DNA from: Escherichia phage vB_EcoM_PTE-Eco09
Direction: 5' to 3' (one strand)
Sequence record: PQ306574.1
Length of the DNA: 64,000 nucleotides
The notes beneath the pieces were generated by a model. That model saw nothing but the letters and a program-made list of their open reading frames with translations, was not told where the DNA came from and did not search any database. The position numbers and the translations under genes were made by a program. Below are positions 14,987-22,456 of this stretch, in pieces (within the stretch, counting starts at the first letter, position 1; every line of letters begins with the position of its first letter).

Positions 14987-15154
14987 ATGACCAAATTAAA
15001 ATGTGTTGCTGTAGATTTTGAGCTAGCTGATAGCTTTGTTGTTGGTGATGAATATGATGCTCGACATGATGGGACTTGCTACTACGTCGAGGATGAATAC
15101 GGTGTAGAATGGGCGATTCTTCCTGATGATAAATGTTTTGAGGTTGTCGGATAA
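14987..15154 (+). CDS. hypothetical small acidic protein
   Basis: 55-aa ORF after PeSL promoter and SD GTGAGGA. Confidence 0.4.
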   Translation: MTKLKCVAVDFELADSFVVGDEYDARHDGTCYYVEDEYGVEWAILPDDKCFEVVG

Positions 15155-15330
15155 TGGCTACTGTATGGTTATTGATTGCAATAAGCAATTCAATGTATAA
15201 TTACGGAAATATGTCAAGCATTGAGTTTGCAACAAAGCAGGATTGCGTTAAAGCTCGCGAGATTATCCGCGAAGACAATAAACGCTTTATGAATCTATAT
15301 TGCGTTGAAAAACAAAAGGTGAACTAATGG
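15154..15330 (+). CDS. hypothetical small protein with N-terminal hydrophobic segment (paralog 1)
   Basis: MATVWLLIAISNSMYNYGNMSSIEFATKQDC...; start overlaps upstream stop. Confidence 0.3.
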
Positions 15331-15494
15331 CTACATTATGGTTATTGCTTTCCGTTAGCGTAGGCGTATATAATAAAGGAACTGTTACCAGCGTAGAGTT
15401 TTCATCATATCAAAATTGTTTTGAAGCTGTGCAGGAATTGCAGCAGGATAGCGAAATAAACAGAAATACTAAGTTCTTTTGTGTTAAAAAGTGA
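15327..15494 (+). CDS. hypothetical small protein with N-terminal hydrophobic segment (paralog 2)
   Basis: MATLWLLLSVSVGVYNKGTVTSVEFSSYQNC...; tandem paralog of previous ORF, start overlaps its stop. Confidence 0.3.
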   Translation: MATLWLLLSVSVGVYNKGTVTSVEFSSYQNCFEAVQELQQDSEINRNTKFFCVKK

Positions 15495-15563: not shown

Positions 15564-16211
15564 ATGAACTTACAAAAACTACATGACGCAATCATAGAAA
15601 AAGCAAAGACGAGAGGAACCGTTGAAGGGTATAAGGAAACACATCATATTTTACCGCGATCTATGGGTGGCGGTGATGAAGTTGATAACCTGATTGAGTT
15701 GACAGCAAAAGAACATTTCGTGATTCATCATCTGCTAGCAAAAATTCATGGTGGACCTATGGCACAAGCATTTGGTATGATGTGTTTAGCAAAAAATGCG
15801 AAGACCAATAAAAGAGATTATATTGTTTCGTCTAGGGTATATGAACAAGCTAGGGTACTTATCTCTGAACAAAGAAAGGGCAAACCTATGAAAGAAGAAA
15901 CGCGAAGAAAGATTAGCGAATCTTCGAAAGGTGTGTTGAAATCAGAAGAGACAAAAGCTAAAATGCGTAAGCCAAAAACAAAGGAGCACGCGTTAAACAT
16001 TTCAAAAGCTAGAATGGGCAGTAAAAATCCTATGTTTGGGAAACCATCGCCAACTAAAGGAATACCACATAGTGAGGAAATGAGAAAGCTGATTGCACAA
16101 AGGACAAAGGAAGCAACAATGGCAGATCCTTGTCCGCATTGCGGTAAAATTACCAATAAAGGCAATTCTCTACGATGGCACTTTGATAACTGTAAAATGA
16201 GGAATATGTGA
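15564..16211 (+). CDS. mobE: HNH homing endonuclease with NUMOD3-like repeats (mobE-like position)
   Basis: HNH motif (THHILPRSMGGGDEVDNLIELTAKEHFVIHH) and repeated K/R-rich NUMOD-like motifs; located between nrdA and nrdB as T4 mobE. Confidence 0.7.
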   Translation: MNLQKLHDAIIEKAKTRGTVEGYKETHHILPRSMGGGDEVDNLIELTAKEHFVIHHLLAKIHGGPMAQAFGMMCLAKNAKTNKRDYIVSSRVYEQARVLISEQRKGKPMKEETRRKISESSKGVLKSEETKAKMRKPKTKEHALNISKARMGSKNPMFGKPSPTKGIPHSEEMRKLIAQRTKEATMADPCPHCGKITNKGNSLRWHFDNCKMRNM

Positions 16212-17378
16212 ATGGGAAATACGGTATTTAATCGTGAACACGTTGATATTATGAATGAACCGATGTTTCTGGGCAGCGGTTTAGGTATCGCTCGTTATGA
16301 CATTCAGCGTCATCAAGTATTTGAAGAATTAATTGAAAAATCTCTGTCATTTTTTTGGCGCCCCGAAGAAATTTCACTTGCAACCGACCGCATTCAATAT
16401 CTTAATATGGGTGACGTTGAAAAGCGTTTCTTTACTGAAAACTTGAAGTATCAGACATTACTTGATTCTATTCAAGGTCGCGCACCGTCCGCAGCATTTG
16501 GTCCAATTGTATCTGATCCAACTCTCGATACATGGTTGCAAACATGGACATTCAGCGAAACGATTCATAGCCGAAGCTATACACACATTATGCGTAACTG
16601 TTTCATTGATCCGGCTAGTGAGTTCGACCAGATCATCGATAACCCTGCTATCATGAAGCGAGCGGAATCTATCGGGAAATATTATGATGATGTTCTTTAT
16701 TGGATTCGTAAGTATGAGAATGCAAAAGAAGATCTCCGCTATTGGGAAGAACGAGACGACCAGACAGCATTAGATGATGCAAGAAGATTTTTTGAAGATA
16801 CAAAACGAGATCTGATGGCTTCGATTTATCTGTGTGCACACTGCGTAAATGCACTGGAAGCAATCCGTTTTTATGTGTCCTTTGCATGTACTTTCAGCTT
16901 TGCCGAACGTGGTTTACTGGAAGGTAACGCGAAGATCATGAAATTTATTGCGCGTGATGAACAACTTCACTTAAAAGGAACACAATACATTATTCGTCAA
17001 TGGCAAACGGGGGTTGATGGTGATGAGTGGAAACAGATTGCGGAAGAACTTGAAGGCGAAGCAACGAAAATCTTTCTGGATGTTGTCGAGCAAGAAAAAG
17101 AATGGGTAGACCACCTATTCGCAATGGGGGCAATTCCTAACCTGTCACCGGAAATTCTGAAAACCTATGTAGAATACCTGGCAGATTCCCGTATGCGTGC
17201 TGCCGGACTGAAAAGCCCGTTTAGTGTTCGTCGTCATCCGTTACCGTGGATGCGTAAATGGTTGAACTCTGACGAAGTACAGAATGCAGCGCAGGAAGTA
17301 GAGATTATGTATCTGGTATCTCAGGTTAATACCGATTTAACAGACGACGACTACAACCGATTCGGGAAATATCTATGA
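16212..17378 (+). CDS. nrdB: aerobic ribonucleotide reductase small subunit
   Basis: 388-aa ORF with class I RNR beta di-iron/tyrosyl-radical-type fold features; position after nrdA. Confidence 0.9.
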   Translation: MGNTVFNREHVDIMNEPMFLGSGLGIARYDIQRHQVFEELIEKSLSFFWRPEEISLATDRIQYLNMGDVEKRFFTENLKYQTLLDSIQGRAPSAAFGPIVSDPTLDTWLQTWTFSETIHSRSYTHIMRNCFIDPASEFDQIIDNPAIMKRAESIGKYYDDVLYWIRKYENAKEDLRYWEERDDQTALDDARRFFEDTKRDLMASIYLCAHCVNALEAIRFYVSFACTFSFAERGLLEGNAKIMKFIARDEQLHLKGTQYIIRQWQTGVDGDEWKQIAEELEGEATKIFLDVVEQEKEWVDHLFAMGAIPNLSPEILKTYVEYLADSRMRAAGLKSPFSVRRHPLPWMRKWLNSDEVQNAAQEVEIMYLVSQVNTDLTDDDYNRFGKYL

Positions 17379-17851
17379 TATATTTTGTCGATTTAGATTT
17401 TACGATCACAGATCCAACGCATCGACTAGCAAAGATGCCAACCGAAAATCTTGATAAAGTCGAGTCATGGATCGAATATAACAAAGCATGTGGGGGAGAT
17501 TCCCCCATTTACGATGTAATTCGTGTTATTAATGCTCTTTCCGACAACGGGCATTTGATTTACATCCTCACAGGACGAAGTTCACATGCTTACATGGAAA
17601 CAATTGATTGGTTAATTTCTAACGGGGTGTGTTTTGATAAAATCTTTATGAGAGGCCGTACCGATTCCCGTAAAGACTATCACATCAAATTAGAGGTAAT
17701 TAAATCCTTTGATAAAGATGAAGTTGTCGGAGTCTTTGAGGATAACCCAGAAGTGATTAAAGTTTTGCGTGAAAATGGTTATCGTGTCTTTGACGTAGGA
17801 AATCACAAAGATAAGACGCGAGCGGATATTGCAAATCACGGTCATGATTAA
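17375..17851 (+). CDS. HAD-superfamily phosphatase (nucleotidase / 3'-phosphatase-like)
   Basis: N-terminal DxDxT motif (FVDLDFTIT), later ILTGRS and EDNPEV blocks typical of HAD hydrolases; start overlaps nrdB stop. Confidence 0.55.
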   Translation: MIYFVDLDFTITDPTHRLAKMPTENLDKVESWIEYNKACGGDSPIYDVIRVINALSDNGHLIYILTGRSSHAYMETIDWLISNGVCFDKIFMRGRTDSRKDYHIKLEVIKSFDKDEVVGVFEDNPEVIKVLRENGYRVFDVGNHKDKTRADIANHGHD

Positions 17852-17863
17852 TGTTTGTTCAAA

Positions 17864-17888
17864 GTCGCCCATAGTGGCGACTTTTTTG
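17864..17888 (+). terminator. intrinsic terminator
   Basis: GTCGCC-CATAGT-GGCGAC hairpin followed by TTTTTTG. Confidence 0.7.
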
Positions 17889-17898
17889 TTATTGGGTG

Positions 17899-17927
17899 TT
17901 GACAATCGGATCGGGGTATAGCATAAT
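17899..17927 (+). promoter_or_regulatory. PeSL-type early promoter
   Basis: TTGACA 17899-17904, 17-bp spacer, CATAAT 17922-17927, leader GCACCCATCGAAACGGAGG. Confidence 0.55.
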
Positions 17928-17951
17928 GCACCCATCGAAACGGAGGAACAT

Positions 17952-18170
17952 ATGGAAACAGAAGAACAAGTCATTGCATATTTTCATCGTAAAAAGATGA
18001 AACTTAGAATCGAAAAGCAGTACATCAATCACTACATTGACCGAGTTCACTTAACAAGTACACCTTACCTATTCCGGTTGATAAACCCTAGAAAACGGTG
18101 GGAGAAGTTGGATAGAAACACAAAAATAATTGATAAGCTCACCCAGTGGTGGAATGAATACAACAAGTAA
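17952..18170 (+). CDS. hypothetical protein
   Basis: 72-aa ORF after PeSL promoter. Confidence 0.4.
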   Translation: METEEQVIAYFHRKKMKLRIEKQYINHYIDRVHLTSTPYLFRLINPRKRWEKLDRNTKIIDKLTQWWNEYNK

Positions 18171-18177
18171 AAAGTAG

Positions 18178-18206
18178 TTGACACTGAATAACTGGGGTAG
18201 TAAGAT
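18178..18206 (+). promoter_or_regulatory. PeSL-type early promoter
   Basis: TTGACA 18178-18183, 17-bp spacer, TAAGAT, leader ACTCCCATCGAAACGAAA, SD GGAGAATCAAA. Confidence 0.5.
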
Positions 18207-18239
18207 ACTCCCATCGAAACGAAACAAAGGAGAATCAAA

Positions 18240-18458
18240 ATGAAATTTACTTGCACCGACTCTATCAGCAAGCACTTTGTAGTAGGCGAAGTATACGAAT
18301 CTACTACCATTCGCCAGCGTGACCTGATGGGTCGCCTTTACAATCAGCCAGTATTCATTATTGGCGAAGAATTGTTCTACATTGAAAACCGTCCGTGGGT
18401 TGCTTTCAATAAACGAGGACGCAAGGTAGCAAAATTCGAACTTGTCATTAAAAAGTAG
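18240..18458 (+). CDS. hypothetical protein
   Basis: 72-aa ORF after promoter/leader/SD cassette. Confidence 0.4.
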   Translation: MKFTCTDSISKHFVVGEVYESTTIRQRDLMGRLYNQPVFIIGEELFYIENRPWVAFNKRGRKVAKFELVIKK

Positions 18459-18487
18459 TTGACAGCATGAAACGGGGGTAGTAATAT
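18459..18487 (+). promoter_or_regulatory. PeSL-type early promoter
   Basis: TTGACA 18459-18464, spacer with GGGGGTA...TACCCCC palindrome spanning the -10 (TAATAT), conserved leader. Confidence 0.5.
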
Positions 18488-18525
18488 ACCCCCATCGAAA
18501 CGAAATACACTTTAAGGAGAATCAA

Positions 18526-18675
18526 ATGAACAACTTTGACGCGGTACTGAAAATGGCAATCGAAACTTACGCGGAGATCTCCGGCGAGAAAGTAGAGGAC
18601 ATTATCAAAGAATGTCAGAACTTTGAAAGCCAGACAGCCAAGAATGTTCAAATGTTGATGTTTGCGGTTGCATAA
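18526..18675 (+). CDS. hypothetical small protein
   Basis: 49-aa ORF (MNNFDAVLKMAIETYAEISGEK...) after SD GGAGAATCAA. Confidence 0.3.
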   Translation: MNNFDAVLKMAIETYAEISGEKVEDIIKECQNFESQTAKNVQMLMFAVA

Positions 18676-18683
18676 AAAAGCAG

Positions 18684-18712
18684 TTGACAGCATATCACGG
18701 GAGTAGTAAGAT
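18684..18712 (+). promoter_or_regulatory. PeSL-type early promoter
   Basis: TTGACA 18684-18689, 17-bp spacer, TAAGAT 18707-18712. Confidence 0.5.
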
Positions 18713-18745
18713 ACTCCCATCCCAAAACAACTAAGGAGTATCAAG

Positions 18746-19144
18746 ATGATTAAATTTCAAACTCGCAAAGACGTTCTGGACTTCGTTAAAGTTTTCGGTT
18801 ACGCTGCATTGCAACATGCAATGGACAAAATGACCATCTCCCCAGATCAGACTATGCTGATCCGTATGGTTAAAGCAACCGCCTACAAAAACGACATTAC
18901 CCTCTCAGAAATCAACGACGGTAATACTGTCCGCGAGGTAATTGTTTCTTTCGAATCACCGAAAATTGGAGGTTTTCATACCACGATGTTAGGTGAAATC
19001 ACTGTCACTGTATACGGGCAAGGTGGCGGAGTGTTTACCGTCAAAGAAGCAATGGAAAACGGAACACTGAACAAAGAAAAACTGGAATTTGTCCTGAAAA
19101 TCATCAATGAGCGTAACGAAGCTCGCGATATTCTGGAAAGTTAA
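18746..19144 (+). CDS. hypothetical protein
   Basis: 132-aa ORF after promoter cassette; followed by terminator. Confidence 0.45.
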   Translation: MIKFQTRKDVLDFVKVFGYAALQHAMDKMTISPDQTMLIRMVKATAYKNDITLSEINDGNTVREVIVSFESPKIGGFHTTMLGEITVTVYGQGGGVFTVKEAMENGTLNKEKLEFVLKIINERNEARDILES

Positions 19145-19194: not shown

Positions 19195-19656
19195 ATGATT
19201 AATGAGCTAATAGAAAACTATGGATTCGTTAAATATTCATGTTTAGAGTGTAAAGATGGTGACGTGATTCTACCGCCTCAGAAGAACCGTTTAAATGTTC
19301 TTTACGCTATTTCGGTTGATGATGAACTGGTATACATTGGTCAGACTGTCAATCTCAGAAAGCGGATCAATTATTAACGGACTAGCATTAACAGACAAAC
19401 ACCAACAGCGGATACTCGCAAGAGTAAGAATATTCATAAGGCGCTAGAGGAAGGTAAGACAGTAACATTCTATTACCGCCAGTGCTTTGAGTTATATATT
19501 GAGAATCCAACGGGTAAAGATATTATAAGCACTGCCGATATCGAAGAACCTGTTTTGATCACCAAATTTAAACCAGAATGGAACACAAATTATGTCAACA
19601 AAAGAAAACAACAAAAAAGTTTTAGCATTGTTCAAAAATCTGATGGCACTATGTGA
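19195..19656 (+). pseudogene. GIY-YIG endonuclease-like ORF interrupted by an in-frame TAA
   Basis: First 60 codons contain LYAIS...LVYIGQT...LRKRINY; TAA at 19375-19377; same frame stays open another 92 codons containing ...EEPVLITKFKPEWN (GIY-YIG C-terminal Glu/Asn region). Confidence 0.45.
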
Positions 19657-20761
19657 CGGATCTGATACGTTCTATTACAAAGATGAAATTACGGCGATGC
19701 AAACCCGTATGCGCATTTTTAGCTATCTGTACTTGAGCAAACCTGAAATGTGGAATAAACCAGATGCGTTAGAGTGTCGCGGGATCATGTTTGAAATTGA
19801 CGATAAAGGTCGTCCGGTCCGCATCGCATCTCGTCCTATGGAGAAGTTTTTTAATTTGGGTGAGAATGATCGCGCTCGCTTTAAGCCGGAAGATGTGGAA
19901 ATGGTCATGGACAAAATGGACGGTAGTCTAGTAAGCACATACATTGATAACGGCTATGTTCAGTTGAAGTCTAAAGCGGCCTTGTACTCAAGCCAGGCAG
20001 AGAGAGCAAACGGTCTTCTGTATTCAGAGAAGTATGCGGATCTACGCGCTAAGATTGCTGATATTGGGTCTGATTATACTTTCAACTTTGAATATACAGC
20101 GCCCAGCAACCGAATTGTTGTAGAATATTCTGAACCGTCGCTAACACTTCTGAATGTACGCCATAACGTCACAGGAGAGTACGTACCGCATCAAATGCTA
20201 TTTTCTGACGCAATCCTACGTCCTCATCTGGTAAATGCGTTACAGGTTGATTCAGCGCGTTTTAGCAATATTCTTGATGAAGTTCGGACCGCAGAAGGTA
20301 TCGAAGGAATTGTTGCACGCACTAAAGACGGTCAAATGTTCAAAGTGAAGAGTGAATGGTATATTGGTGTGCATAACATTAAAAACACATCGATGTTTCC
20401 TAATAACCTGATCTACTATGTCGTAGAAAGCGAAACCGATGATTTGCGTGCTGCATATGAAGGCGAACCGGAAGCACTGGAACGAATCGAGCTATTCGAG
20501 GAAGCATTCAGGTCTATTCTTCGCAATGCCTTCACGACAGCAACAGAATTTTATAACGCACACGCGGGAGAAGACAGAAAGACATATGCATCAAATGCGA
20601 CTATCGAATCACGTAAACATGGTGATGCACAAGCATATATTTTCATGTGTCTGATGATTGCATTTGATGGTCTTGATTATGACCGTATTCTGGATTCAAT
20701 GAAAACTTACTATCTACGGAATTATAAGAAACTTATTCCGGCTGATAAGATTGATTGGTAA
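19592..20761 (+). CDS. rnlA: RNA ligase 1
   Basis: Strong match to recalled T4 Rnl1/gp63 (PDALECRGIMFE, PVRIASRPMEKFFNL, DGSLVSTY, NFE(F/Y), NRIV, LLNVR.N.TGEY, LRP.LV, NIEG.VA, DGS/Q.FK.KS.WY, DRKTYA, FLKNYKK.IP). Confidence 0.9.
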   Translation: MSTKENNKKVLALFKNLMALCDGSDTFYYKDEITAMQTRMRIFSYLYLSKPEMWNKPDALECRGIMFEIDDKGRPVRIASRPMEKFFNLGENDRARFKPEDVEMVMDKMDGSLVSTYIDNGYVQLKSKAALYSSQAERANGLLYSEKYADLRAKIADIGSDYTFNFEYTAPSNRIVVEYSEPSLTLLNVRHNVTGEYVPHQMLFSDAILRPHLVNALQVDSARFSNILDEVRTAEGIEGIVARTKDGQMFKVKSEWYIGVHNIKNTSMFPNNLIYYVVESETDDLRAAYEGEPEALERIELFEEAFRSILRNAFTTATEFYNAHAGEDRKTYASNATIESRKHGDAQAYIFMCLMIAFDGLDYDRILDSMKTYYLRNYKKLIPADKIDW

Positions 20762-21129: not shown

Positions 21130-21578
21130 GCATAGAAATATTGCCTACACAAGAGCAGATAAGCAATTTTAATCTGGTTGATTATCTGTGGATAGGTGCA
21201 AGCATTATTATCCTGATGGTGTTTTCAATTTTCGTGATACACTGGATGTTTAAGAAAGCACATAAGAATTTTCAGACCTCCATAATCCATGTCTTCGCTT
21301 TGCCTATTGTATTTGCGCTTTCTTCGTGTACAATGGACCATTATTCACAGGAACCGAAAGTACATCCTCCACTACCAGCACCAATAGAAAAAGTTGACAT
21401 TGACCTGAAAGTGGATACAATAGACGGTAAACCTAGAGTTTCTATGTCGTGGGAGGACTCCCAAAAATTCAGAGTCTGGCTTGCGGATATTAAGAGATAT
21501 ACACTTGAAAGTAAGTTGATCATGTGTTATTATCGAAAAGAACTTAATGAGGAACGGTGCAAACCGAAGGAGAAATAA
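21126..21578 (+). CDS. hypothetical membrane protein
   Basis: 150-aa ORF with hydrophobic helices near N-terminus; start overlaps upstream stop. Confidence 0.4.
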   Translation: MSIEILPTQEQISNFNLVDYLWIGASIIILMVFSIFVIHWMFKKAHKNFQTSIIHVFALPIVFALSSCTMDHYSQEPKVHPPLPAPIEKVDIDLKVDTIDGKPRVSMSWEDSQKFRVWLADIKRYTLESKLIMCYYRKELNEERCKPKEK

Positions 21579-22456
21579 TGCCGAAATGTGAAGTGATTTT
21601 AACCGTTGGTTGTTCTGGGTCCGGTAAAACTACATGGGCGATGGAAACATGTAAACGGTTTAGTAATTATCGTAATGTGAATCGTGATGATCTTCGTCTT
21701 ATGTTGTTTGGTGTTGACTCACATTTGAAATACAAGTATACTAAGGAAAAAGAAAAGCTGGTAGAGTCTATTCAGAGAATGATTGCTCGTGAGACTCTAT
21801 CACGCGGATTGAGTATCATTATCTCCGATACCAACCTGAAAGAAAAACATCGTGTATTCTACAAAGAACTTGCAAAAGAATTTAACGCGGTGTATACTGA
21901 ACAAGTGTTCAATGAATCATTTGAGACACTAAAGAAACGTAATTTCTATCGCGGTGAGAAAGCAATTCCACTTTCTCATTTGCGCAACCAATTTTATCTG
22001 ATGCAGGAATATATGGGTCAAGAAGTATACAAACCGAATACCATGCTGCCAAAGGCAGTGATCTTTGATATTGATGGGACATTAGCGGATAAGGGCGGTC
22101 GTCATCCGTTTGACTGGACAAAGGTCAAAGAAGATAAACCTCGTCCGCAAGTGGTCGAAATGCTTAAACTGTATCGTGATAATGGTTATCGTATCATTAC
22201 ATGCTCAGGGCGTGAGGATGTTTGCGAAGAAGATACTCTGCAATGGTTGCGTGAACAGGGTATTGAACCGAGTGATCACTTTCAACGTGAAACTAATGAT
22301 CGTCGTCCTGATCATGAAGTGAAGAAAGAGATCTTCTTCTCTGAAATTGCACCGCGTTATCATGTTGTTTTGGCGGTAGATGACCGTGATCAAGTGGTTG
22401 ACATGTATCGCTCAATTGGTGTAGAATGTTTTCAGGTTAACTACGGAGACTTTTAA
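21578..22456 (+). CDS. pseT: polynucleotide 5'-kinase / 3'-phosphatase
   Basis: P-loop GCSGSGKTTWA, NRDD, SDTNL, AVPL..LR.Q, HAD-type AVIFDIDGTLA, VVEM, VSGRE, VKKEIF, AVDDRDQVVDMYRSIGVECFQV...GDF match recalled T4 Pnk. Confidence 0.9.
   Translation: MPKCEVILTVGCSGSGKTTWAMETCKRFSNYRNVNRDDLRLMLFGVDSHLKYKYTKEKEKLVESIQRMIARETLSRGLSIIISDTNLKEKHRVFYKELAKEFNAVYTEQVFNESFETLKKRNFYRGEKAIPLSHLRNQFYLMQEYMGQEVYKPNTMLPKAVIFDIDGTLADKGGRHPFDWTKVKEDKPRPQVVEMLKLYRDNGYRIITCSGREDVCEEDTLQWLREQGIEPSDHFQRETNDRRPDHEVKKEIFFSEIAPRYHVVLAVDDRDQVVDMYRSIGVECFQVNYGDF

Follow-up and report, generated by a model that had tools for sequence, protein, structure and literature searches.

Why would a T4-type phage that already carries a full-length Pnkp (kinase plus phosphatase) encode a second, kinase-less Pnkp-type phosphatase directly behind nrdB, its gene for the small subunit of ribonucleotide reductase? 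The question arises in a 64,000-nucleotide stretch of Escherichia phage vB_EcoM_PTE-Eco09 (PQ306574.1), the whole of which we call the window. The source phage is a Krischvirus, an RB49-like T4-type coliphage, and the phosphatase is 100% identical to RB49p229 (NP_891800), with four synonymous and no non-synonymous differences between the two genes. Public RB49-type/Krischvirus genome records already contain the gene together with its assignment to a family, and its discovery value is small. The explanation we arrive at is that of a Pnkp-branch phosphatase of foreign origin, co-expressed with NrdB and serving nucleotide recycling; taken as a whole, we consider it about evenly poised between right and wrong, and its parts carry different degrees of confidence, given below.

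The phosphatase gene and its junction with nrdB

Table 1. Features of the window around the stand-alone phosphatase gene.
Feature	Position	Strand	Basis or remark
nrdB (ribonucleotide reductase small subunit)	16212..17378	+	ORF; RB49 annotation; PF00268 match on the L006 orthologue
Stand-alone Pnkp-type HAD (DxDxT) phosphatase gene	17375..17851	+	158 aa; ATG at 17375, TAA at 17849-17851; corresponds to RB49p229
ATGA, overlap of nrdB stop (TGA) and phosphatase ATG	17375..17378	+	Sequence
Motif I, D6-L-D8-F-T10 (putative nucleophile Asp6, putative acid/base Asp8)	17390..17404	+	GAT TTA GAT TTT ACG
Intrinsic-terminator-like hairpin and T-run closing the putative nrdB-phosphatase unit	17861..17890	+	Terminator scan
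Early-type promoter TTGACA-17-CATAAT	17899..17927	+	First of four repeated PeSL-like promoter cassettes
rnlA (RNA ligase 1), sealing partner of pseT	19592..20761	+	ORF; annotated rnlA in RB49 and relatives
pseT, full-length Pnkp (kinase and phosphatase, 292 aa)	21578..22456	+	Comparison with T4 Pnkp 1LTQ

The initial annotation had pointed out that the start of the phosphatase gene overlaps the nrdB stop, and this is borne out by the ATGA at the junction (Table 1). The same junction with nrdB occurs in RB49, in L006 and in the 82%-identical L004 and L005, and the overlap is likely to couple translation of the two genes. A promoter scan of the junction found no promoter-like site between nrdB and the phosphatase gene, and a motif search found no late promoter TATAAATA near the latter. 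The next feature on its 3' side is a terminator-like hairpin (17861-17884), which the terminator scan describes as a 9-pair stem with 5 G-C pairs, followed by TTTGTTATTG. Beyond this hairpin, four repeated promoter cassettes start the next block of small ORFs; they resemble PeSLs, a concept set out in PMC2839356 and PMC4122927. Given the ATGA overlap, the lack of a promoter-like site between the genes and the terminator directly after them, we think it likely that the phosphatase gene is transcribed with nrdB as the final cistron of one unit and that its product is made together with NrdB. The co-expression suggested by the initial annotation fits the overlap and the scan of the junction. The linkage to nrdB may also mean no more than that a mobile gene landed there, on the border of a plastic region rich in PeSLs.

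Judged by its conservation, the ORF is a real, functional gene, far beyond what a chance ORF would display. Compared with relatives whose proteins are 96% and 82% identical, the gene gave dN/dS values of 0.06-0.08, and the catalytic residues are all kept in the 82%-identical relative. In 58 phage records there is a homologue at 95% or higher protein identity, and 58 also match the 5-kb region at 95-99%. A word-indexed protein search returned three near-identical proteins only; the wider family was reached by an exhaustive representative search across 1.84 billion proteins, which yielded 4539 cluster representatives at E <= 1e-3. Among the 152 best relatives of these 4539, 118 are 130-180 aa long, so a protein without a partner domain is the rule here rather than a shortened version. 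In one relative, a dGTP_diPhyd_N domain forms part of the same protein.

Assignment to the Pnkp branch of HAD phosphatases

The initial annotation had described the product as a stand-alone HAD protein with a DxDxT motif and proposed an HMM assignment to a HAD subfamily. That assignment is to PF25109 (HAD_PNKP), Pfam's family for Pnkp 3'-phosphatase domains; the score is 50.6 bits, above the gathering cut-off of 27.6 (E = 2.9e-13). In PHROGs, the protein matches phrog_415 (E = 2.9e-51), the fused Pnkp family phrog_505 (7e-20) and, more weakly, phrog_1238, which bears the name 'phosphoheptose isomerase'. PF03767 (class B acid phosphatase, HAD IIIB) fell just under its cut-off of 27 with 26.4 bits. 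No NCBIfam family scored above cut-off for the phosphatase, TIGR01675 reaching 19.7 against 264. PADLOC gave no defence-system family match (best E = 0.01), and a defence or anti-defence homology of the protein was dropped on this ground.

Structure prediction and alignment place the protein in the same family. The AF2 model (pLDDT 93.2) consists of alternating strands and helices and contains the Rossmann-like alpha/beta core fold of the HAD superfamily. When this predicted model was compared with the PDB using Foldseek, 59 matches were obtained at E <= 1e-3, and all of the 50 listed have the HAD fold. Ranks 1-6 are occupied by 4xrp, 5uj0, 4xru and 1ltq, which are Pnkp1 and T4 Pnkp phosphatase structures; the best matches, Pnkp1 4xrp and T4 Pnkp 5uj0/1ltq, reach TM 0.68-0.73. 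A single-sequence PDB search gave Pnkp1 as its sole and marginal match (E = 0.011), and the relation to T4 Pnkp rests on the alignment and the structure model, beyond that search.

Loss of the catalytic Asp residues on alignment would have refuted the initial annotation; both are present in our alignment with 81 relatives. Motif I aligns with T4 D165-V-D167-G-T169, and D6 is conserved in 81/81, D8 in 80/81 and T10 in 78/81 relatives. HAD motifs II-IV are also present, as T66, K105 (81/81) and E122-D123 (D123 81/81), which correspond to T4 S211, K258 and D277-D278. The remaining T4 residues R176, D187, R213, R246 and D254 map to R17, D42, R68 (each 80/81), R93 (invariant, 81/81) and D101 (67/81), so that the mapped catalytic positions are 83-100% conserved overall. 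In the T4 enzyme, R176, D187, R213 and D254 are reportedly essential for the 3'-phosphatase, and the arginine pair R246 and R279 has reportedly been suggested to grip a polynucleotide at its penultimate phosphodiester. Where T4 has R279, the phosphatase has Asn124, its closest clade Asn or Ser, and 42/81 relatives Arg. The roles of T4 D165, D167, S211, K258 and D278 are described in PMC3592404. By analogy with T4 Pnkp, Asp6 would attack the phosphate to form an aspartyl-phosphate intermediate, with Asp8 as general acid/base; the phosphate would be held by Thr66 and Lys105, and Mg2+ by Asp6, Asp123 and the main-chain carbonyl of Asp8. Together, sequence and structure model make it very likely that the protein is a Mg2+-dependent HAD (DxDxT) phosphomonoesterase of the Pnkp branch.

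The protein is also stand-alone, as the initial annotation had it. We detected no second domain, no Walker A and no kinase family match, and the nucleophile Asp already stands at residue 6. Because no kinase domain is discernible in the sequence, the database name 'polynucleotide kinase' for this 158-aa protein is wrong, as is the label of phrog_415. The proposed activity, a dNMP or 3'-phosphatase, divides into two halves: the 3'-phosphatase option is backed by homology because the HMM assignment is PF25109, whereas a 5'-dNMP phosphatase gained no specific support. Homology cannot tell polynucleotide from mononucleotide 3'-phosphate substrates, since the T4 Pnkp phosphatase is active on 3'-dTMP as well as on RNA ends (PMC3592404). 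As a separate observation, a 5'-dNMP phosphatase would drain precursors, not supply them.

The C-terminal 3'-phosphatase of T4 Pnkp/PseT (1LTQ, 2IA5, 5UJ0) belongs to the same PF25109 and has the same cap-less HAD fold (TM 0.66-0.70). Both share the catalytic set of nucleophile Asp, acid/base Asp, Thr/Ser, Lys and Mg2+-binding Asp, and R176, D187, R213, R246 and D254 are kept as well. In contrast to T4 Pnkp, the phosphatase is without the N-terminal P-loop kinase and shares 23% identity with the T4 domain. Behind motif I, an insertion of ~14 residues (P22 to A38; predicted helix 29-41) that T4 Pnkp does not have includes a near-invariant Trp32; the C-terminal tail of the phosphatase ends in HG, with Asn124 in place of R279, and its gene lies in the nrdB operon, not beside rnlA. 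The best structural match is Pnkp1 of the bacterial Pnkp1-Rnl6-Hen1 RNA repair complex (4XRP/4XRU; E = 5.7e-8, TM 0.73), which has the same HAD phosphatase module but, unlike the stand-alone protein, is kinase-fused and complexed with a ligase and a methyltransferase. Secondary structural matches (TM 0.60-0.64) are the class B/C acid phosphatases (AphA, e(P4); HAD IIIB, PF03767), which hydrolyse 5'- and 3'-mononucleotides. Their fold, of HAD subfamily III, is related and displays the same set of four motifs. Identity to these is 15-16%, and the acid phosphatases are larger and secreted, whereas the stand-alone phosphatase opens directly with its first core beta-strand and lacks a signal peptide.

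Co-resident pseT and the T1-like relatives

The pseT product matches T4 Pnkp (1LTQ) over its whole length (E = 4.2e-70) and keeps all phosphatase catalytic residues; from its sequence, it is apparently an intact, active Pnkp. Both pseT and rnlA lie within about 4 kb of the stand-alone phosphatase gene, with rnlA 1.7 kb downstream. The stand-alone phosphatase shares 27-28% identity with the co-resident pseT domain and 41-48% with its stand-alone counterparts in T1-like siphophages. By neighbour-joining it groups with Jk06, while pseT is 156th and T4 Pnkp 154th of 156 by distance. Because identity is 28% to pseT against 41-48% to the T1-like proteins, the gene appears to be a transferred one and no pseT duplicate, and we consider it probable that it was acquired from the T1-like siphophage phosphatase lineage. 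A recent duplication of pseT was rejected as its origin on the 28% identity and the neighbour-joining placement. Monophyly of the kinase-fused forms was not seen in this rough neighbour-joining tree.

The T1-like proteins of ~155 aa (Jk06 JK_61P, Q45PV5; phrog_415), named 'polynucleotide kinase' or '3'-phosphatase' in their records, have the same size and architecture as the Krischvirus phosphatase. Their predicted structures superpose on it at TM 0.92-0.95, and they share with it the motif H-R-L-x-x-x-P-x-x-N-L-x-x-x-E-S-W of the insertion as well as an Asn or Ser where T4 has R279. Their genomic setting differs. In T1-like phages the phosphatase gene is preceded by one for a metallophosphoesterase 'DNA repair exonuclease', and in Webervirus it is directly followed by a dNMP-kinase-like gene; the Krischvirus gene follows nrdB, and those partners are absent. 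Judged from sequence, Krischviruses have two Pnkp-type phosphatase sites, both apparently active and each with its own ancestry, which is relevant to pseT phosphatase knockouts. The complete pseT with rnlA nearby, the T1-like affinity and the existing Krischvirus annotation all go beyond the initial annotation.

Gene neighbourhoods and candidate roles

We surveyed gene neighbourhoods around the best 80 viral loci, a small and biased sample that forms 29 groups at 70% identity, using crude ORF finding. A dNMP-kinase-like or MazZ-like NTP pyrophosphohydrolase gene is directly adjacent in 9/29 groups, and a metallophosphoesterase 'DNA repair exonuclease' lies directly upstream in 5/29. A Pnk kinase domain is adjacent in only 1/29, and no group (0/29) has a T4-type ligase within three genes, as searched with T4-type queries only. 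One Autographiviridae relative has a DNA ligase two genes downstream of the phosphatase, and 19/29 groups are without an informative neighbour. The identity 'dNMP kinase' is a PHROG name: for the neighbouring P-loop gene of the T1-like, Webervirus and Autographiviridae relatives, a PDB profile search returned generic P-loop/adenylate-kinase matches, and the hhalign probabilities were 35% for the Pnk kinase domain and, over 45 columns, 60% for T4 gp1, with a gp1 query that may be approximate. The idea behind these comparisons, a split Pnkp in which that P-loop gene would supply the kinase to the phosphatase, received no clear backing from them, and the window contains no such gene. None of the relatives' partner genes (metallophosphoesterase, dNMP-kinase-like/P-loop or MazZ-like) was found in the 64,000-nt window. 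These neighbourhoods modestly favour a nucleotide-recycling 3'-phosphatase over RNA repair, and they lend only indirect support to the earlier idea that the enzyme augments precursor supply.

Nucleotide recycling is the role we tentatively prefer, while rating it somewhat short of an even chance. The most likely job of the enzyme would be to strip 3'-phosphates from host nucleic-acid breakdown products, with 3'-phosphate-ended oligonucleotides, nucleoside 3',5'-bisphosphates and 3'-(d)NMPs as candidate substrates. Once the 3'-phosphate is removed, further degradation could follow and lead into the NMP/NDP-to-dNDP precursor stream fed by NrdAB. Since T4 Arg246 reportedly contacts a second phosphate, the invariance of Arg93 fits substrates that carry another phosphate. 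Repair of tRNA and other RNA would be left to the separate pseT-rnlA pair.

The phosphatase could instead be a second end-healing enzyme, which we judge unlikely while giving it real weight. Host anticodon nucleases, toxin RNases or a phage RegB-type nuclease would cut RNA (or DNA), and the enzyme would clear the resulting ends of 3'-phosphates or 2',3'-cyclic phosphates. It would thereby back up or extend the pseT phosphatase, either for RnlA repair or, in mRNA decay, for opening RNA 3' ends to PNPase. Such a role is in keeping with the Pnkp family assignment by HMM, fold and catalytic residues, with the invariant Arg93, with the position of rnlA 1.7 kb downstream and with the DNA ligase near the phosphatase gene of one relative. 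The T4 Pnkp phosphatase itself heals RNA 3'-P, 2'-P and >p ends (PMC3592404) and, once RegB has cleaved an mRNA, favours its 3' decay (PMC3014915). However, a stand-alone protein without a kinase cannot complete healing alone, and an intact bifunctional pseT is already present in the phage. A terminator and four promoter cassettes separate the gene from rnlA, and its apparent coupling is to nrdB instead. The scarcity of adjacent Pnk kinase domains and T4-type ligases among the 29 groups, and the Asn124 at the T4 Arg279 position, also argue against end healing.

We find it improbable that the protein acts on small molecules and has nothing to do with nucleic-acid ends, be it as a nucleotidase for 5'-(d)NMPs, as a phosphatase of sugar phosphates or as one for signalling nucleotides with a 3'-phosphate, such as pGp, (p)ppGpp products or pAp. 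The near-threshold PF03767 score points this way, as do the next-best structural matches of the predicted model (AphA, e(P4) and class C acid phosphatases), the MazZ-like NTP pyrophosphohydrolase domains that relatives are fused with or lie next to, and the weaker phrog_1238 match. Nevertheless, the Pnkp family scores far above any small-molecule HAD family, the Pnkp-specific essential residues (T4 R176, D187, R213, R246, D254) are all kept, and a nucleotidase for 5'-dNMPs would squander precursors if it were coupled to ribonucleotide reductase. RB69p051, whose RefSeq name is also 'phosphoheptose isomerase', is a HAD protein with a 'PNK phosphatase domain' in a sugar-nucleotide cluster, that for arabinosyl-hmC (PMC8056088), but its similarity to the phosphatase is marginal (E = 1e-4 over 25 residues) and it was rejected as an analogue. 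RB49-type DNA is reported to be unmodified (PMC8056088), so no sugar-nucleotide pathway would be expected. Hardly tenable, in our view, is a decaying or functionless passenger, the remnant of a Pnkp minus its kinase. The short protein, the full-length paralogue in the same genome and the position at the edge of a plastic, PeSL-rich region would agree with decay, but the low dN/dS, the catalytic residues kept in the 82%-identical relative, the occurrence in 58 phage records, the 130-180-aa size of most of the best relatives and the confidently predicted fold all speak against it.

Literature searches found no biochemical study of kinase-less Pnkp-type phosphatases, the T1-like phage proteins included, and nothing specific on the RB49/Krischvirus phosphatase, kinase-less Pnkp or PF25109. 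Beyond nucleotide recycling in Krischviruses, a more speculative and rather doubtful proposal is that stand-alone Pnkp-type phosphatases in general are non-RNA-repair enzymes, which would either form the middle step of a scavenging module or act on 3'-phosphorylated regulatory nucleotides. A scavenging module would run from a nuclease or metallophosphoesterase through the 3'-phosphatase to a dNMP kinase, an NTP pyrophosphohydrolase or ribonucleotide reductase; the alternative regulatory substrates would be pGp, (p)ppGpp breakdown products, pAp and 2',3'-cNMP-derived 3'-NMPs. If this proposal is true, the Krischvirus copy would have been recruited to the nrdAB operon for scavenging or signalling, with pseT-rnlA keeping repair. 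The recurring linkage to nucleotide-metabolism genes offers a testable hypothesis for the function of a large family.

A Pnkp-type phosphatase gene overlapping the end of nrdB

The initial annotation had described a stand-alone HAD phosphatase with a DxDxT motif whose start overlaps the nrdB stop, and each element of this observation held: the ORF, the motif and the ATGA shared by the nrdB TGA (17376-17378) and the phosphatase ATG (17375-17377). We found no promoter-like site between nrdB and the phosphatase ORF, and no T4-type late promoter near the gene. The phosphatase gene is in an operon with nrdB, and we infer that its translation is coupled to that of nrdB.

Profile searching, proposed in the initial annotation as a way of assigning a HAD subfamily, placed the protein above the Pfam gathering score for PF25109 (HAD_PNKP, the phosphatase domain of polynucleotide kinase-phosphatase; 50.6 bits against 27.6), whereas it fell just under the threshold for class B acid phosphatases (PF03767; 26.4 against 27). 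Among PHROGs, phrog_415 spanned the whole protein (2.9e-51), and the bifunctional Pnkp family phrog_505 matched (7e-20) over the C-terminal part of the profile only (positions 165-292 of 295); NCBIfam and PADLOC searches returned nothing significant. An AlphaFold2 model built from an alignment of 81 relatives had a mean pLDDT of 93.2, dropping below 70 only in the last ~18 residues. Its best PDB matches were Pnkp1 (4xrp/4xru), the isolated phosphatase domain of T4 Pnkp (5uj0) and the full-length T4 enzyme (1ltq/1rc8/2ia5), at TM ~0.66-0.73, with acid phosphatases of classes B and C and further HAD proteins next; among predicted viral structures, T1-like phage proteins matched best (TM 0.92-0.95).

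We mapped active-site residues by aligning the protein with T4 Pnkp, the pseT product of the same phage and two T1-like homologues, with T4 numbering verified on the PDB alignment. T4 Pnkp D165, D167, T169, R176, D187, S211, R213, R246, D254, K258, D277 and D278 correspond to D6, D8, T10, R17, D42, T66, R68, R93, D101, K105, E122 and D123, respectively. These 12 positions are 83-100% conserved among the 81 relatives (D6, R93, K105 and D123 are invariant), and the catalytic Asp residues on which the initial annotation hung, D6 and D8, are kept. The sole departure is at T4 R279, which is Asn or Ser in this protein and its closest clade, whereas Arg is the family majority (42 of 81). In the T4 phosphatase, R176, D187, R213 and D254 are reportedly essential, S211T and D277E are said to be tolerated, and R246 and R279 reportedly coordinate a sulfate mimicking the penultimate phosphodiester. 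In T4 Pnkp, Asp165 is the covalent nucleophile and Asp167 serves as general acid/base; the phosphate is contacted by Ser211 and Lys258, and Mg2+ is bound by Asp165, Asp278 and the carbonyl of Asp167; substrates are 3'-dTMP and RNA 3'-P, 2'-P and 2',3'-cyclic phosphate ends (PMC3592404). The active site of the stand-alone phosphatase is intact, and its chemistry would follow an aspartyl-phosphate mechanism dependent on Mg2+. On every testable criterion, the protein belongs to the Pnkp-type HAD phosphatase domain family, and it would work as that family does.

Features around the phosphatase gene and cassette loci of its relatives
Feature	Coordinates	Strand	Description
Small paralogous ORF	15154-15327	+	57 aa
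Small paralogous ORF	15327-15494	+	55 aa
HNH-type ORF	15564-16211	+	215 aa, homing-endonuclease-like, immediately 5' of nrdB
nrdB	16212-17378	+	ORF upstream of phosphatase gene
Stand-alone phosphatase ORF	17375-17851	+	ATG 17375 to TAA 17849-17851, 158 aa
Motif D-L-D-F-T	17390-17404	+	Residues 6-10, window sequence
Hairpin with T-run	17861-17890	+	3' of phosphatase gene
Early-type promoter	17899-17927		Near-consensus, TTGACA-17-CATAAT, after hairpin
Early-promoter cassettes	~17889-17942, 18168-18246, 18449-18527, 18674-18752	+	Each before a small ORF
denA homologue	19195-19656	+	Premature stop 19375-19377 (codon 61, TAC to TAA)
rnlA	19592-20761		RNA ligase 1
pseT, full-length	21578-22456		292 aa, end-to-end match to T4 Pnkp, E = 4.2e-70
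Cassette, locus L007	2821-5052		Relative of phosphatase
Cassette, locus L010	2966-5948		Relative of phosphatase
Cassette, locus L003	3749-5474		Relative of phosphatase

Several other features mark this region. The two paralogous ORFs between nrdA and nrdB both start MAT(V/L)WLL and have a hydrophobic N-terminus. The HNH-type ORF is reminiscent of the mobile endonucleases in the nrd region of T4; RB49 and most Krischvirus relatives lack it, their matches starting at ~16224, and it is apparently present in FL15, phiS, JSE and AV108, all of which match from the query's first base. The early-promoter cassette occurs in four copies, the first of them after the terminator hairpin. Every copy has TTGACA-17-TAnnAT, a G-rich stem-loop covering its -10 region and, further on, CCCATCGAAACG followed by a Shine-Dalgarno sequence; the copies match the PeSL (promoter-early stem-loop) elements known from RB49/phi1 (PMC2839356, PMC4122927). 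The denA (endonuclease II) product is predicted at 60 aa, against 153 aa in RB49, with the remaining frame otherwise intact; because of this interruption, the vB_EcoM_PTE-Eco09 isolate probably lacks EndoII.

A second phosphatase site, probably of different ancestry

Neither a P-loop nor a kinase family match (Pfam, NCBIfam) was found in the protein, whose nucleophile Asp lies six residues from the N-terminus. Since the defining kinase domain is absent, the protein is outside the bifunctional Pnkp/PseT class. Standing alone, as had been claimed for it, is normal for the family: among the 152 best representatives, 118 measure 130-180 aa and ~13 carry an N-terminal P-loop kinase. Three relatives (P0021, P0144 and P0046) are unusual fusions, including one in which the phosphatase domain is duplicated in tandem. 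Unnoticed in the initial annotation, pseT lies ~3.7 kb downstream and keeps every phosphatase residue in the alignment. The phage thus apparently encodes two competent Pnkp-type phosphatase sites, which shifts the question from what the phosphatase does to why there is a second one.

The stand-alone protein shares only 28% identity with the phosphatase domain of the co-resident pseT, against 41-48% with ~155-aa stand-alone proteins of T1-like siphophages and Klebsiella Webervirus-type phages. Neighbour-joining of 157 phosphatase domains clustered it with Jk06 and a metagenomic relative, and of 156 domains ranked by distance from it, T4 Pnkp came 154th and pseT 156th. Close homologues within T4-type phages are confined to Krischvirus (at least 95% identity in 58 records, below 60% in all others). 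Judged by similarity ranks and a distance tree too rough for a rigorous phylogeny, horizontal acquisition is the best reading, which would make the gene a xenologue.

Over the surrounding 5 kb, 58 phage records match at 95-99% identity, and every one is from an RB49-like T4-type coliphage in the genus Krischvirus; RB49, JSE and FL15 are among them. RB49p229 (NP_891800) has the same protein sequence, and only four synonymous changes separate the two genes. Public records name the protein 'polynucleotide kinase', '3'-phosphatase', 'polynucleotide 5'-kinase and 3'-phosphatase', 'phosphatase' or 'hypothetical protein'. The family assignment already stands in public annotation; the finding is genuine and was described correctly, but it is an ordinary one. 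Literature searches turned up no experimental work on the kinase-less Pnkp phosphatase subfamily.

Gene context and candidate roles

In unrelated siphophages and an Autographiviridae phage, a conserved cassette runs from a metallophosphoesterase or 'DNA repair exonuclease' gene through the phosphatase to a phrog_139 P-loop 'dNMP kinase'-like gene (a PHROG name only) joined to it by an overlapping stop/start. The phosphatase gene follows a 'DNA repair exonuclease' gene in Jk06 (phrog_704 in the Webervirus orthologue), has, in one Webervirus, that gene on one side and on the other an overlapping gene of phrog_139 ('deoxynucleoside monophosphate kinase'), and lies in the Autographiviridae phage between a metallophosphoesterase gene and a phrog_139 gene followed by DNA ligase. 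In a small census with crude ORF calls, skewed to the closest clade (80 IMG/VR loci, 29 groups at 70% phosphatase identity), nine groups had as direct neighbour of the phosphatase either a dNMP-kinase-like gene or one with a MazZ-like dATP/dGTP pyrophosphohydrolase domain (phrog_801, or phrog_4889 in its C-terminal part), five had a metallophosphoesterase immediately upstream, and in one a Pnk kinase domain adjoined the phosphatase. No group had a T4-type RNA or DNA ligase within three genes. One representative is fused to PF18909 (dGTP_diPhyd_N, the MazZ-like dATP/dGTP diphosphohydrolase N-terminal domain) and another to a Prim-Pol primase-polymerase domain. None of the partner genes (dNMP-kinase-like, MazZ-like or metallophosphoesterase) occurs within the window.

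Given the gene context of relatives, the tie to ribonucleotide reductase and the separate pseT-rnlA repair pair, we tentatively favour the reading that the enzyme removes 3'-phosphates from products of nucleic-acid breakdown, so that these can be recycled into the precursor stream. Candidate substrates would be 3'-P oligonucleotides, pNp and 3'-(d)NMP, and invariant Arg93 would fit a substrate with a second phosphate. This role would come close to one of the two options in the initial annotation, a dNMP phosphatase or a 3'-phosphatase. The main rival, somewhat unlikely in our judgement, is that the protein provides a second activity for healing RNA or DNA ends, which could include opening RNA 3' ends for PNPase, as T4 PNK does following RegB cleavage (PMC3014915). 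A small-molecule phosphatase appears less probable still. For the recycling role, the caution applies that the gene may have come to lie behind nrdB by chance, having inserted where a plastic region begins.

That the gene is a decaying remnant is highly improbable, being contradicted by selection. Its dN/dS is 0.084 against L006, a 96% identical relative, and 0.058 against L004/L005, which are 82% identical and have synonymous sites near saturation. In these relatives the gene directly follows nrdB at the same TATCTATGA junction and keeps all catalytic residues. As judged from these sequence comparisons, the phosphatase is under purifying selection and is a working gene.

Together, this analysis corrects the 'kinase' label on the stand-alone phosphatase, recognises one phage with two phosphatase sites of different ancestry, and offers, for a phage family that is very large and uncharacterised, a nucleotide-recycling hypothesis that can be tested.
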